Assembly (NCBI GenBank): GCA_964512265.1 | Contig: CAZEHR010000014.1 | Span: forward strand, 23,765 to 87,764 | DNA from: an uncultured Sphingobium sp. | Lineage (GTDB): Bacteria > Pseudomonadota > Alphaproteobacteria > Sphingomonadales > Sphingomonadaceae | DNA: 64,000 nucleotides | Direction of reading: 5' to 3' | Shown here: one piece after another, positions 47,038-55,282 of the stretch | Numbering within the stretch: position 1 is the first letter of the stretch | Layout of the letters: each line of letters opens with the position of its first letter | Made by a program: the position numbers and the translations under genes | The notes under the pieces: generated by a model | What the model saw: only the letters and a program-made list of their open reading frames with translations | Databases searched by the model: none | Told to the model about the DNA's origin: nothing

Positions 47038-47781
47038 ATGGCAAGCAGCCCGGAGACGACGATCAACCCTTCGGAAGCGCGGCATTTCGGCGCGCTGGCG
47101 GAGGATTGGTGGAACCCCAGGGGCAGCAGCGCGATGCTGCACAAGCTCAATCCTGTGCGCCTGCGCTATATCCGCGCGGCGGTGGATTCGCACTGGGGCG
47201 GGGACGGGCGAGATTTGCGGCCGCTGGAAGGCAGGCGCGCGCTCGATGTCGGCTGTGGCGCGGGGCTGTTGTGCGAGCCGCTGGCACGGCTCGGCGCTCA
47301 GGTGACCGGAATCGATGCGGCAGCGGAAAATATCGCGGCGGCCCGCGCCCATGCCGGGCAACAGGGGCTGACGATCGACTATCGCGCTACCGGGATCGAG
47401 TCGCTCGGCATGGAAGGCGCGTTCGATCTCGTCACCAGTATGGAGGTGATCGAGCATGTGAGCGAGCCTGCGCTGTTCATTCGCGGGTTGACGCAGGCGC
47501 TGGCGCCCGGCGGGCTGATGATCCTGTCAACGCCCAACCGCACCGCGCTCTCGCGCCTCGCCATGATCACGGTCGGTGAGGGGCTGGGCTTCATCCCCAA
47601 AGGCACGCACAACTGGAATCAGTTCCTGCCGCCTGCCGCGCTGGAGGCATTGCTCGCCGATGAGGGGCTGGAGAGCTTCGACATGCGCGGCATAGCCTTC
47701 GATCCGCGCACCGGATTTGCACTCAGCGATAATCTCCAGCTCAACTATATCCTCTGTGCGCGGAAGATCGGCGCGGTTTAG
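47038..47781 (+). CDS. ubiG: Ubiquinone biosynthesis O-methyltransferase
   Basis: LHKLNPVRL, LDVGCGAGLL, MEVIEHV, GTHNWNQF. Confidence 0.96.
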   Translation: MASSPETTINPSEARHFGALAEDWWNPRGSSAMLHKLNPVRLRYIRAAVDSHWGGDGRDLRPLEGRRALDVGCGAGLLCEPLARLGAQVTGIDAAAENIAAARAHAGQQGLTIDYRATGIESLGMEGAFDLVTSMEVIEHVSEPALFIRGLTQALAPGGLMILSTPNRTALSRLAMITVGEGLGFIPKGTHNWNQFLPPAALEALLADEGLESFDMRGIAFDPRTGFALSDNLQLNYILCARKIGAV

Positions 47782-48197
47782 CCCGCGGCAGTATCCTGCT
47801 GCTGGTTGACCATCGCGCGGGCCATCTGCGCCAGCCGGATTTGCATCGCCTCGCCCAGATCGGGGTCGATGGTGCGCTGTTCCGCAATAGCGCGCGCCAT
47901 CGCGTCGGCCCATTGGTCTCCAATCTCGGCCGAAATCGGAAAGGCGCGGTGCAGCGACATTACGCACTTGCCATGCGCGAACCAATCCTTCGGGCCGCCG
48001 GTCCAGGCGTTGAGGAACTGGGTCAATCCCGCCTGCACCGGCCCCAGATCCTCCGCGTGGATCGCGCGTAGCTCCGCATAGGCAGGGTCGTTGCCCATCA
48101 GGTCGTAAAAGCGCGCCACGATGCGCTCGATCATGTCGCTGCCGCCCAGTACTTCATAGGGCGTTGCCGACTTTGTAGTGGGTTGGTCCAAGGTCAT
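47778..48197 (-). CDS. Group II truncated haemoglobin
   Basis: YEVLGG, RFYDLM, FLNAWTGGP, LHRAFPI, W...M. Confidence 0.88.
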   Translation of the reverse strand: MTLDQPTTKSATPYEVLGGSDMIERIVARFYDLMGNDPAYAELRAIHAEDLGPVQAGLTQFLNAWTGGPKDWFAHGKCVMSLHRAFPISAEIGDQWADAMARAIAEQRTIDPDLGEAMQIRLAQMARAMVNQQQDTAAG

Positions 48198-48242: not shown

Positions 48243-48256
48243 TTGACCTCGGTCAA
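48243..48256. promoter_or_regulatory. FNR/FixK-type palindrome upstream of the truncated haemoglobin
   Basis: TTGAC-CTCG-GTCAA, centred about 52 bp upstream of the ATG and overlapping the polA stop codon. Confidence 0.6.
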
Positions 48257-51122: not shown

Positions 51123-52295
51123 TTATTTCGTGGCGTAGCTGAACCTTTGATCCATCACTGGGCCATCATGATAGGCCGCCACCGCGCGCGCCACGCCCTG
51201 CATCACCGCCCAGCGTTCCGGGATCGAGACGGTCGTGCTGGCGATCATCACCGCCACGGCATAGCTGGTGCCATCCGGAGCGGTCATGATGCCGACATCG
51301 TTGAAGCCGGTGGCGCGCGGGTAAAGCTCCTGCCCCGTGCCGGTCTTGTGCGCATAGCTCCAGCTCGCCGGCACGCCGCCCTTGATGCGCTGCGGCCCGG
51401 TTTTGGCCTCGTGCATCACCTCAAGCAGATAGGCGGTGGAAGCGGGAGAGAGCATTTCTCCGCGTTTCAGCCGCGCGAGCGCCAGCGTGATGCTGCTCGC
51501 GGCCGCGCCGTCCATCGGGTTGGCGAGATAGTCGTTCAGCGCCTTCTCGCGCACCGCGCGGGGAAGCGCGGAACGGGCGGCGTTGAAGCCGCCGCCGAAT
51601 GCCATGCGCTGGTTCCATTCAAGGCCTGCCGTCGCGCTCTGCAACAGTCGCTCGCCAGGGCCGAAGCGGATGTTGGGAATGAAGCGCCGGGCGAGATAGC
51701 CGCGGATTGCCTCCGGCCCGCCGACCTGGCGCAGCACTGCATCGTTGGCGGTGTTGTCGCTCTGGGTCATCGCGCGCGTCATCAGGTCCGCGACGTCAGT
51801 GGTATAGCCGGTGTTGCGCACCATCGCGGCAAGCGGCTGGTGGAACAGGGTCAGGTCGTCGGGCCTCAGCGTCACAGGGTCCAGCAAGGTCAGCTTGCCA
51901 CGATCCACTGCATCCAGCACCGCCATCGCAACCCACAGCTTGGAAACGCTCTGCTGCGGCATCAAACTGTCAGCGTTATAGGCGGCCTCCCATTCGGCAT
52001 CGATCGGGCGCACGGATATCGCCACGGTGCCGTTGAACCCACTGCCCAACGCCTCAATCTGGGCGCGCAGGGCTGCGGGCGCTCGGGCCCGGCTTTCCTG
52101 TGGCGATATCTCGCTATAGCGGACTGGTGATGAAAATGACGCGGGGGGCACCGCCTGGCTGGTGGAGAACGTGCTCGCCGCCATCATGCCACCGGCGAGC
52201 GCCATGGCCGCCAATGCCTTCGACCAGTGGCTAGCGCTTTTGCGCTGCCTGCCGCCACACCGATAATTGGCCTTCCCGCCTCGCTTTACTTTCAT
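51123..52295 (-). CDS. Class A beta-lactamase-like serine hydrolase
   Basis: SxxK (QSVSK), SDN, HKTGTG motifs; N-terminal signal/TM segment. Confidence 0.8.
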   Translation of the reverse strand: MKVKRGGKANYRCGGRQRKSASHWSKALAAMALAGGMMAASTFSTSQAVPPASFSSPVRYSEISPQESRARAPAALRAQIEALGSGFNGTVAISVRPIDAEWEAAYNADSLMPQQSVSKLWVAMAVLDAVDRGKLTLLDPVTLRPDDLTLFHQPLAAMVRNTGYTTDVADLMTRAMTQSDNTANDAVLRQVGGPEAIRGYLARRFIPNIRFGPGERLLQSATAGLEWNQRMAFGGGFNAARSALPRAVREKALNDYLANPMDGAAASSITLALARLKRGEMLSPASTAYLLEVMHEAKTGPQRIKGGVPASWSYAHKTGTGQELYPRATGFNDVGIMTAPDGTSYAVAVMIASTTVSIPERWAVMQGVARAVAAYHDGPVMDQRFSYATK

Positions 52296-52493
52296 TCCAC
52301 CCGCACACCCGATTTTCCGCCCTCGACGACCCGGCGGTTGCCATCAACATAACACGGCCGTCGTCGCCCCGCGAGCATGTTAGGGCTTTTTTGCTTGCCC
52401 GATGCAGGGATTATGCGACGAACGATTCCAATATTCCGTTAACTCGAGCAGCGGGCCGTTCAAACTGAGACGAAATACGTCAAATGCGATCTG

Positions 52494-53378
52494 ATGGTTG
52501 ATAAGACAGGCGATTCTGGGTGGATAAGGCGCGATGTGATTCGCGGGTGCGGAGGGTTGATGGCCCTCGGTATGCTGCCGCCTCTGATGGGGGTGGCAAT
52601 GTCCGCAGAGCCCTTTGTCTCGGATCGGCTCATGGTGTTGACGCGCGGCGAACGCGGGCCGGGCGGGCGCGACATCGTCCTGATCCCCGGCCTCGCAAGC
52701 AACCCCGGCATATGGTCATCGCTGGTCGCGCGGCTCAACGGACATCGCTTTCACCTTGTGCATGTCAACGGCTTCGCCAGGCGCCCCGCCGCCGCCAATG
52801 CCGCTGGCCCGCTGCTCAACCCGCTCGTGGCCGAAATAGGGCGCTATATCGTGGCGCAGGGGCTGCGCGCGCCGGTCATCATCGGGCACAGCATGGGCGG
52901 CACGATCGCGCTGATGATGGCGCTCCGTCCTGATATCCGCCTGGCACAGCTCATGGTGGTTGACATGTTGCCTGACGGTTCAGCGATGCTGGGCGGCACG
53001 GCGCGGGGCTATGGCTATCTTGCGGGGCAGTTGAACGGCTATCTTACCGGCACGAAGGCAGGGCGGCAGATGCTCGCCGATATGGTGCGCCAGACGCCAA
53101 GCGGGCGGGATAGCGACCCGCGGGTCATCGCGCAGGCGCTGACCGAACTGGCGCAGACGGATCTGACCGCGCGGCTGCGCTCGCTCGCCTGCCCGCTCAC
53201 GGTTGTCCCCGCGCTGCCTGGCCGGGCAGACCTCGATGCAGCGCAGATGCGGCGTTATGGCACGGCCTATGCGGGGGTTAAAGGTCTGACGCTGGCAGGC
53301 ATCGGGCCCAGCGGGCACCAGATCATGCTCGATCAACCGGAAAAATTCGCGGTGGCGGTCCGGAAATTTCTCTCCTGA
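52494..53378 (+). CDS. Alpha/beta hydrolase, possibly Tat-exported
   Basis: LIPGLAS, GHSMGG, GHQIMLDQP; RRDVI followed by a hydrophobic stretch. Confidence 0.85.
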   Translation: MVDKTGDSGWIRRDVIRGCGGLMALGMLPPLMGVAMSAEPFVSDRLMVLTRGERGPGGRDIVLIPGLASNPGIWSSLVARLNGHRFHLVHVNGFARRPAAANAAGPLLNPLVAEIGRYIVAQGLRAPVIIGHSMGGTIALMMALRPDIRLAQLMVVDMLPDGSAMLGGTARGYGYLAGQLNGYLTGTKAGRQMLADMVRQTPSGRDSDPRVIAQALTELAQTDLTARLRSLACPLTVVPALPGRADLDAAQMRRYGTAYAGVKGLTLAGIGPSGHQIMLDQPEKFAVAVRKFLS

Positions 53379-53387
53379 GCGTTATTG

Positions 53388-53401
53388 TTGACGCAGGTCA
53401 A
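53388..53401. promoter_or_regulatory. FNR/FixK-type palindrome
   Basis: TTGAC-GCAG-GTCAA (extended GTTGAC...GTCAAC). Confidence 0.55.
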
Positions 53402-53415
53402 CGAAGAGCGTCGTC

Positions 53416-53546
53416 AAGGGGAGTAGCCCGATAGTCGACCGAGAGACGAGACGCGGTCTCCTCTCCCGGTCAGGGGCGTCTTCCCGCGCCTCCTCCTCGG
53501 CACTTCATGGGGGTGCGCGCTTTCGGGCCGCACCCCTTTTTTTGTT
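53416..53546 (+). ncRNA. Candidate structured small RNA or long 3' UTR
   Basis: Successive hairpins, three CU-rich tracts, intrinsic terminator, no ORF; convergent intergenic gap; 5' end uncertain (53416-53437). Confidence 0.45.
53510..53546 (+). terminator. Intrinsic terminator
   Basis: GGGGTGCG...CGCACCCC followed by T8. Confidence 0.85.
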
Positions 53547-53549
53547 GGA

Positions 53550-54998
53550 TCAGTGTGCGAGTGCCTTGACGATATCCTCAACCATCTTCTTGGCGTCGGC
53601 CAGCAACATCATGGTGTTGTCCATGTAGAAAACGTCGTTGTCGACACCGGCATATCCGACACCGCCCATCGAGCGCTTGACGAACAGCACCGACTTGGCG
53701 TTGGCGACCTCAAGGATCGGCATGCCGTAGATCGGCGAAGTCTTGTCGGTCTTCGCCGCCGGGTTGGTGACATCGTTCGCGCCGATGACGAAGGCAACAT
53801 CCGCCTGGCTGAACTCGCTGTTGATATCCTCCAGCTCGAACACTTCGTCATAAGGCACGTTCGCTTCGGCAAGCAGCACGTTCATGTGGCCGGGCATGCG
53901 GCCCGCGACCGGGTGGATCGCATATTTGACGCTGACGCCTTCCTTCTTGAGCAGGTCGCCCATCTCGCGCAGCGCATGCTGCGCCTGGGAGACGGCCATG
54001 CCATAGCCGGGAACGATGATGACGCTCTCTGCCTGTTGCATCAGGAACGCGGCGTCGTCGGCAGAGCCGCGCTTCCATGGGCGCTGCTCCTTCGTTTCGC
54101 CGCCCGAAGCCGCAGCCTCGGCGCCAAAGCCGCCCGCGATCACCGAGAGGAACCCGCGGTTCATCGCCTTGCACATGATGTAGCTCAAGATCGCGCCCGA
54201 GCTGCCCACCAGCGCGCCGGTGATAATCATTGCCGTGTTGTGCAGCGTAAAGCCCATCGCCGCTGCCGCCCAGCCCGAATAGCTGTTCAGCATCGAGACG
54301 ACCACCGGCATGTCCGCACCGCCGATCGGGATGATGAGCAGGAAGCCGATGAGGAAGCTCAGCGCCGTCACGGTCCAGAACACCCAGGGCGCCTGATCCT
54401 GCGTGAAATAGGCGACAAGGCCGAGGATCGCGGCGAGCGTGCCCAGGTTGATGACATGACGGCCCGGCAGCAAGATCGGCTTGCCGGACATGTTGCCATT
54501 GAGTTTCAGGAACGCGATGACCGAGCCCGAGAAGGTGATCGCACCGATAGCGACCCCAAGGCCCATCTCGATGCGGCTGGCGGTGAAGATCTCGCCGGTT
54601 GCCGGGTCGGCGATGCCGAACGCCGCCGGGCTGAGATAAGCCGCCGCGCCGACGACAACCGCCGCCATGCCGACCAGCGAGTGAAACGCCGCCACAAGCT
54701 GCGGCATGTCCGTCATCGCGATCCTGCGAGCGGTGATAAAACCGATCACGCCGCCGATGGCGATCGCGCCAAGTATCTCGGGAATCGCGACGACATCATG
54801 CGTGTAGAGCGTGGTCGCGACCGCAATCGCCATGCCCGCCATGCCATAGCGGTTGCCTGCGCGGCTGGTCGCCGGGCTGGAAAGCCCGCGCAGCGCCAGA
54901 ATGAACAGCACTCCGGAGACCAGATAGGCAAAGGCGATCCAGGGCGAAACGCTGTGCGCGGTGTCGCTTGCTGCTTCCATCAACATGCCGAGCTGCAT
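53550..54998 (-). CDS. pntB: NAD(P) transhydrogenase subunit beta
   Basis: MPQLVAAFHSLVG, NSYSGWA, PGYGMAVSQAQH, HPVAGRMPGHMN. Confidence 0.98.
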   Translation of the reverse strand: MQLGMLMEAASDTAHSVSPWIAFAYLVSGVLFILALRGLSSPATSRAGNRYGMAGMAIAVATTLYTHDVVAIPEILGAIAIGGVIGFITARRIAMTDMPQLVAAFHSLVGMAAVVVGAAAYLSPAAFGIADPATGEIFTASRIEMGLGVAIGAITFSGSVIAFLKLNGNMSGKPILLPGRHVINLGTLAAILGLVAYFTQDQAPWVFWTVTALSFLIGFLLIIPIGGADMPVVVSMLNSYSGWAAAAMGFTLHNTAMIITGALVGSSGAILSYIMCKAMNRGFLSVIAGGFGAEAAASGGETKEQRPWKRGSADDAAFLMQQAESVIIVPGYGMAVSQAQHALREMGDLLKKEGVSVKYAIHPVAGRMPGHMNVLLAEANVPYDEVFELEDINSEFSQADVAFVIGANDVTNPAAKTDKTSPIYGMPILEVANAKSVLFVKRSMGGVGYAGVDNDVFYMDNTMMLLADAKKMVEDIVKALAH

Positions 54999-55282
54999 CA
55001 CTTGCGCTCCTTCTTCTTGTACATGGCGAGCATGCGTTCCGTCACGGCGAAGCCGCCGAAAATGTTGACGCTGGCAAACACCACGCCCGCAAGGCCCAGC
55101 CACTTGGCGAGGCCGTCACCGCCCTCCGCGCTGGCGATCAGCGCGCCAACGATGATCACGGATGAAATCGCATTTGTCACCGCCATCAGGGGCGTGTGCA
55201 GCGCCGGCGTGACCGACCAGACGACATAATAGCCCACGAAACAGGCCATCACGAAAATTGAAAGTATGGAGATGAAATCCAT
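54998..55282 (-). CDS. pntA: NAD(P) transhydrogenase subunit alpha, part 2 (membrane)
   Basis: VTPALHTPLMAVTNAISS, NIFGGFAVTERML. Confidence 0.96.
   Translation of the reverse strand: MDFISILSIFVMACFVGYYVVWSVTPALHTPLMAVTNAISSVIIVGALIASAEGGDGLAKWLGLAGVVFASVNIFGGFAVTERMLAMYKKKERK

Follow-up and report, generated by a model that had tools for sequence, protein, structure and literature searches.

Is the short interval between an α/β-hydrolase gene and the convergent pntB gene of an uncultured Sphingobium an independent gene for a small RNA (sRNA) under an oxygen-responsive regulator, or is it only the trailing end of the hydrolase mRNA? A first-pass annotation of the window (the whole stretch of 64,000 nucleotides that was analysed) had pointed to a convergent gap without a forward-strand gene downstream and had proposed that it holds an independent sRNA gene of the FNR-dependent type. 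pntB does lie on the reverse strand, ending at 53550, and the proposal gains support from comparative sequence evidence, namely covariation, a fixed spacing between a regulator-binding box and the RNA, and co-occurrence of the RNA with an FnrL-type regulator. We consider it probable that the gap is an independent gene for a trans-acting sRNA of ~108 nt, which would be situated at the 3′ end of the hydrolase gene and have a terminator in common with it. Judged by these comparisons, it is a real, conserved sRNA family, undescribed before, absent from Rfam and confined to Sphingobium among the genomes sampled. Our literature search found no paper on a Sphingobium small RNA; in the literature searched, no oxygen-responsive small RNA was described in sphingomonads, and SuhB of Sphingopyxis was the only sphingomonad small RNA described as characterised in its strain.

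The hydrolase–pntB gap

The features of the locus are collected in Table 1. Between the hydrolase stop codon and an FNR-type box there are only 9 nt, the pntB stop codon lies 6 nt past the U-run of the sRNA terminator, and the hydrolase gene is without a terminator of its own ahead of the sRNA. Within these bounds we predict an RNA of ~108 nt on the forward strand, its 5′ end being placed by the promoter spacing described below. The elements on which the first-pass annotation had built its case are present: the TTGAC-N4-GTCAA palindrome is perfect, the hairpin that it had put about 40 bp after the palindrome starts 36 nt past it, and all three CU-rich tracts are found in the gap sequence; the strong terminator is likewise there, with a run of seven T instead of the eight that had been claimed. 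A chance assembly of such elements is opposed by the small number of strict boxes in the 2.96-Mb genome (only 7 TTGAY-N4-RTCAA sites, against 25 of the TTGA-N6-TCAA form), by the fold of the 171-nt gap (z-score −3.27 versus shuffles), and by the conservation of every feature in relatives.

The RNA has the attributes of a stand-alone non-coding unit, with covarying helices, a Rho-independent terminator with U7 and no conserved open reading frame. A small protein was ruled out as the product because the only ATG (53507) and a reverse-strand open reading frame (53414-53581) are absent from relatives, and a repeat or mobile element was ruled out because the gap sequence is single-copy in its own genome and in relatives. 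Simple scans for a sigma-70 promoter and for a terminator returned neither in the gap, the terminator having been missed by them. In the cmscan comparison that the first-pass annotation had recommended, run with all 4227 Rfam families at E-values up to 10 on positions 52000-55000, the gap (53379-53549) gave no match, and no known family is assigned to it. pntB, for its part, has no obvious terminator of its own (53537-53552): on the reverse strand A7 precedes the hairpin and no U-run comes after it, so that pntAB transcripts may run antisense into the sRNA gene.

Table 1. Coordinates of the predicted sRNA gene and its surroundings, with strict FNR-type boxes of the same genome (positions are those of the window unless a contig is given)
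Feature	Position	Strand	Remarks
α/β-hydrolase gene, Tat-type signal	52494-53378	+	Abhydrolase_6 match; stop codon 53376-53378
Gap	53379-53549		171 nt, between the convergent hydrolase gene (+) and pntB (-)
FNR/FnrL-type strict box TTGAC-GCAG-GTCAA (TTGACGCAGGTCAA)	53388-53401		palindrome; centre 41.5 nt upstream of the predicted start; precedes the sRNA
Predicted -10 element TAGCCC	53424-53429	+	TA at -12/-11
Predicted sRNA transcript	53436-53543	+	model R1: 111 bits here, 58-112 bits across 16 species
Stem-loop 1, GACCG...CGGTC	53437-53471	+	14 pairs; loop GCG; 3′ arm CU-rich
CU-rich tract TCTCCTCTCCC	53457-53467
Stem-loop 2, G(A/G)GGCGU - CUUCCC - RCGCCUC	53473-53492	+	nearly invariant
CU-rich tract TCTTCCC	53479-53485
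CU-rich tract CCTCCTCCTC	53489-53498
Single-stranded linker CUCCUCGGCACUUCAU	53493-53508	+	candidate seed: anti-Shine-Dalgarno plus GGCACUU
Rho-independent terminator	53509-53543	+	stem 53509-53537, -21.7 kcal/mol; U7 53537-53543
pntB	53550-55103	-	Pfam PNTB, E 3.8e-193; bounds the sRNA element, not part of it
Strict box TTGACCTCGGTCAA	48243-48256 (genome C14:72007)		precedes group II truncated haemoglobin-like gene
Strict box	C15:59502		precedes ccoN
Strict box	C1:244066		precedes 5-aminolevulinate synthase gene (hemA)
Strict box TTGATACATATCAA	C7:38193		~90 nt upstream of dihydropteroate synthase gene (folP)

Structure and distribution of the RNA in Sphingobium

BLAST of the gap against 60 relatives, a sample without the closest species, returned chance matches to GC-rich coding sequence only; the relatives of the locus were located by anchoring on the hydrolase orthologue. 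The four nearest species have one layout, in which a TTGA-N6-TCAA box just past the hydrolase stop is followed by a variable spacer, a variable 5′ hairpin, the nearly invariant block GAGGCGTCTTCCCRCGCCTCCTCCTCGGCACTTC and a terminator stem with compensatory differences; one of the four is without pntB downstream. With a covariance model built from five sequences (R1) we recovered 16 strong members among 163 Sphingobium species, hereinafter the long form. In the alignment of these 16 species, which was fitted to model R1 and hence favours the structure somewhat, 88.5% of the cells are paired, and in 17 of the 25 pairs both partners have changed. All 500 shuffles fall short of the observed values on each of five measures, and pairing falls to 38–57% when the pairing partners are slid along.

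The support is spread over the helices. Stem-loop 1 differs in sequence between species around a conserved base (GAC...GUC), and both partners have changed in 7 of its 8 modelled pairs, as they have in 8 of the 10 modelled pairs of the terminator. Stem-loop 2 has 98–100% of its cells paired, with compensatory changes (C-G to U-A, G-C to A-U) in single species. Between stem-loop 2 and the terminator lies the invariant stretch CUCCUCGGCACUU, which is predicted to be unpaired; the sequence CTCCTC...CTCGGCACTT (as RNA, CUCCUC..CUCGGCACUU) shows no difference among the 16 long-form species, in contrast to the helices on either side, and such identity of the linker is the usual signature of a seed. 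Both the hairpins and the palindrome, whose lack of conservation in relatives had been set beforehand as one of two refuting results, are conserved.

A short form of 66–82 nt occupies the same locus in ~45 further Sphingobium species (model R2, E < 1e-8, 163 species). It is made up of one hairpin and a terminator together with an unpaired stretch (CCUCCUCCACCUCA or similar), and it is nearly always placed directly 3′ of the hydrolase orthologue; model R2 weakly cross-matches long-form copies. Taking both forms, the sRNA lies 3′ of the hydrolase orthologue in most carrier species; in other species the hydrolase gene is followed immediately by its neighbour, with no sequence between. The downstream neighbour is variable: pntB is missing from this position in two genomes (G073 and G159), and another convergent gene takes its place in short-form loci. 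Since this neighbour differs between species, pntB is not linked to the RNA, and the element travels with the hydrolase gene. In the short-form loci (L048, L053, L064 and others) the converging gene that replaces pntB is itself conserved and has a product ending in ...ESRGLHYTLDYP..., which looks like L-aspartate oxidase (NadB) on an identification made by eye only.

An exact-pattern scan with one genome per species yielded 15 records, 13 of which are labelled Sphingobium (S. jiangsuense, S. fluviale, strain DEHP117 and 10 MAGs), the other two being MAGs labelled only Sphingomonadaceae or Sphingomonadales. S. fluviale, S. jiangsuense and DEHP117 are carriers of the long form. Searches of ~400 genomes from 112 other Sphingomonadaceae genera with models R1 and R2 recovered no copy with a box; the matches outside Sphingobium were exclusively box-less terminators or other CU-rich candidates. 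The RNA, whose covariation the first-pass annotation had suggested looking for across Sphingomonadaceae, is found within Sphingobium and not elsewhere in the family, as far as the sampled genomes go.

The promoter and its candidate regulator

Across 50 unique orthologous loci the TTGA and TCAA of the box are invariant, and the 6 central nucleotides and the following 22-nt spacer vary. Past the box, conservation resumes at one spot, a TA at positions 23-24 after it. In 41 of 49 loci the distance from the start of the box to the conserved 5′ end of the RNA is 48 nt, so that the centre of the box falls at -41.5; in the window the conserved 5′ end falls at 53436, the very position near which the first-pass annotation had expected a start from class II spacing, and it is from this spacing alone that we infer the start. 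An A occupies -11 in 48 of the 49 loci and TA occupies -12/-11 in 37, and TA is found at the mirror position in none. With TA on one side of the palindrome only, the promoter points at the RNA, and a leftward promoter from the same palindrome was ruled out. The box and the TGA stop codon of the hydrolase gene overlap in short-form loci.

The TAGCCC of the window is a weak -10 element; weak -10 elements are expected of activator-dependent promoters and are no positive evidence in themselves. The promoters of ccoN and hemA in the same genome have a box-to-TA spacing equal to that of the sRNA promoter. Taken as sequence, this layout matches an activator-dependent class II promoter that would drive a stand-alone sRNA. 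In the sphingomonad S. granuli TFA, mapped Fnr-activated promoters, that of ccoN included, are centred at -41.5 (PMC7713065).

Directly upstream of ccoN (C15:58734-59470) there is a gene coding for a Crp/Fnr protein with an N-terminal CxxCx7C motif and a central Cys, and the strict box that precedes ccoN sits in the spacer between the two genes. This FnrL/FnrN-type protein is the likely regulator of the sRNA; at least three further Crp-family proteins are encoded in the genome. Of the 163 Sphingobium genomes, 106 encode an FnrL orthologue (at least 54% identity), and the RNA was detected in 61 of these as against 3 of the 57 genomes without the orthologue (Fisher p = 3.7e-12, not corrected for phylogeny). 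The three genomes that have the RNA and not the orthologue differ in state: in G032 both the box (TTGACACGGCCCAA) and the -10 element have decayed, in G139 the A at -11 and the CU motif have been lost, and in G033 the box is intact and only a 43%-identical FnrL paralogue is encoded. A further genome without the orthologue, G084, retains the remnant of a decayed box (GTGACATGGGTCGG) together with TAGGAA at the -10 position (locus L156, C3:2297000-2297400), the body of the RNA having been deleted. Conversely, in 45 genomes the regulator is present and the RNA was not detected, so that the regulon need not include the RNA. These genomic patterns make it very probable that the sRNA family belongs to the FnrL regulon.

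Two of the other strict boxes have features of their own. The box at 48243-48256 overlaps the polA stop codon, the truncated haemoglobin gene being located at ~47778-48197 on the reverse strand. The folP product has an N-terminal extension of ~100 aa, and the folP box is without TA at the expected -10 position; we note folP as a candidate unusual member of the FNR-type regulon.

Proposed action, known counterparts and competing explanations

We propose that, when oxygen is scarce, the FnrL/FnrN-type regulator would bind the TTGAC-N4-GTCAA box and, given the box centre at -41.5, would stimulate RNA polymerase in the class II manner, with transcription running from near 53436 to the U7 terminator. 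The invariant single-stranded CCUCCUCCUCGGCACUU would then pair with the Shine-Dalgarno regions (GGAGG) of target mRNAs, as the CUUCCC loop of stem-loop 2 probably would too, and translation of the targets would thereby be lowered, probably with Hfq. The sRNA would in this way act as the repressing arm of the FnrL regulon, as FnrS does in E. coli. Conserved unpaired sequence of the sRNA is complementary to GGAGG-type ribosome-binding sites, and the invariant GGCACUU suggests that the predicted pairing extends past the Shine-Dalgarno sequence. The genome has an hfq gene (C2:198669-199112) whose single reading frame contains two Sm-like domains in tandem; these are 55% and 52% identical to residues 3-68 of E. 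coli Hfq.

A genome-wide duplex scan with the seed gave no convincing target and was dominated by Ala-Glu-Glu coding sequence, its top match outside the locus lying inside a SnoaL-like coding sequence. Duplex scans of translation start regions, based on home-made gene calls, gave GC-rich noise and no interpretable ranking, and the neighbouring genes have no special complementarity to the sRNA. As a tentative and rather doubtful idea, we raise that the sRNA is gained, reshaped and lost along with its regulator in obligate-aerobe Sphingobium, and that it would serve under oxygen limitation to restrain translation broadly, across strongly translated mRNAs, instead of acting on a few specific targets. 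This idea would take in the two structural forms, the promoter built into the upstream stop codon and the resemblance of the seed to the anti-Shine-Dalgarno sequence of 16S rRNA.

The closest functional analogue is FnrS, the FNR-activated, Hfq-dependent sRNA of Enterobacteriaceae, to which the Rfam scan indicates no homology. FnrS is a stand-alone RNA of similar size (~120 nt) with a Rho-independent terminator and a class II FNR-type promoter centred at -41.5; the predicted Sphingobium RNA has a corresponding layout, its box being centred at -41.5 from the predicted start, and the role that we propose for the Sphingobium sRNA, the repressing arm of an oxygen-limitation regulon via pairing with ribosome-binding sites, would be alike. 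Unlike FnrS, the Sphingobium sRNA is found in an aerobic alphaproteobacterium with an FnrL/FnrN-type regulator, its candidate seed is a CU-rich anti-Shine-Dalgarno stretch, and its gene is located at the 3′ end of a coding gene.

Nearer in phylogeny, the first-pass annotation had drawn a comparison with AbcR and CcsR/cuckoo, of which the likeness in anti-Shine-Dalgarno sequence stands and family membership does not. With CcsR/cuckoo/alpha-r14 (NfeR1) the RNA shares a CU-rich, anti-Shine-Dalgarno-like CCUCCUC and stem-loops with variable stems; CcsR, which is under RpoHI/HII control, has a different promoter. In the Sphingobium RNA the CU motif lies in the linker and the helix arms, the only conserved loop is CUUCCC, and the RNA is single-copy instead of forming a tandem array. 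As the cuckoo family is defined by 2–4 adjacent hairpins, each with CCUCCUCCC in the loop (PMC4615179), assignment to cuckoo/CcsR/alpha-r14 was ruled out; membership in AbcR, cuckoo/CcsR or FnrS was also ruled out by the lack of an Rfam match at E-values up to 10.

For FnrL-dependent control of an alphaproteobacterial sRNA there is precedent in Rhodobacter sphaeroides, where the promoters of two sRNAs of uncharacterised function, RSs0019 and RSs2461, bind FnrL in ChIP-seq (PMC4263372). Rhodobacter belongs to a different order, and FnrL binding, which was measured there, is predicted for the Sphingobium sRNA; no homology to RSs0019 or RSs2461 was detected, models R1 and R2 having matched nothing with a box outside Sphingobium. 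In its arrangement the locus resembles 3′-end sRNAs with their own promoter, of the DapZ/MicL type: since the hydrolase gene is without its own terminator, its mRNA must end at the sRNA terminator, and an sRNA promoter at the end of the upstream gene is thus combined with a terminator common to mRNA and sRNA. DapZ and MicL are enterobacterial and have other regulators, and the Sphingobium arrangement is deduced from sequence only.

This use of a common terminator invites the explanation that the region is simply the 3′UTR and terminator of the hydrolase mRNA, that an sRNA would arise solely by processing, and that the palindrome is no promoter element. Hydrolase transcripts would in any case have to run to the sRNA terminator, the box comes 9 nt after the stop codon, and in most species the RNA does lie 3′ of the hydrolase orthologue. 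Such a 3′UTR, however, needs neither a box whose distance to the conserved 5′ helix is constant at 41.5 nt nor an invariant A at -11; moreover, the box decays where the FnrL orthologue is missing, and two loci (L087 and L088) carry RNA and box without an evident hydrolase end upstream. We judge it unlikely that processing is the only source. A 3′UTR-derived sRNA had been offered in the first-pass annotation as an alternative to an independent gene; it turns out to be compatible with one and no rival to it, inasmuch as the promoter adjoins the hydrolase stop codon or extends over it, and a single terminator serves both genes. Read-through from the hydrolase gene may thus be a second, processed source of the same RNA.

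If the RNA has a promoter of its own, as we prefer, the box might nevertheless be read by another Crp/Fnr regulator (FixK-like, NnrR/Dnr-like or other) that responds to NO or to a redox signal. TTGA-N6-TCAA is generally known to be common to several Crp/Fnr branches (PMC7713065), any of the three or more additional Crp-family proteins of the genome could recognise it, and G033 combines the RNA and an intact box with only the 43%-identical paralogue of FnrL. What makes this improbable in our estimation is that ccoN and hemA, classic FnrL/FnrN targets, have a box of equal type and spacing, that the gene for the cysteine-cluster regulator adjoins ccoN, and that presence of the RNA follows the FnrL orthologue. 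It has a much smaller chance still of being correct that the transcript acts in cis on the convergent pntB, by head-on transcription or antisense pairing, and not on distant mRNAs. The end of the U-run lies 6 nt from the pntB stop codon, and pntB transcripts, finding no U-run after the hairpin on their strand, may enter the RNA gene antisense; but the downstream neighbour is not conserved (neither in G073 and G159, which are without pntB, nor in the short-form loci), and the invariant single-stranded seed argues for targets elsewhere.

An independent, trans-acting sRNA, the reading that we favour, would bear on organisms that are widely used against pollutants and lignin-derived aromatics, as oxygen supply limits such degradation by sphingomonads. 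The sRNA is a concrete candidate for how aerobes tune translation at low oxygen, with its promoter, predicted start and seed defined, and species without the regulator provide natural knock-outs. It adds a predicted alphaproteobacterial counterpart to FnrS, and it offers a case of a promoter that is built into an upstream gene's stop codon and has been kept across dozens of species. In other genera of Sphingomonadaceae we observed candidate sRNAs (L160, L162, L121, L174 and L165) that are composed of a hairpin, a single-stranded CU-rich stretch (such as CCCUCUCCCCC or AUCCUCUCCCAAACUUCA) and a terminator, with no FNR-type box upstream; these may belong to a broader class of anti-Shine-Dalgarno RNAs with promoters of other kinds.
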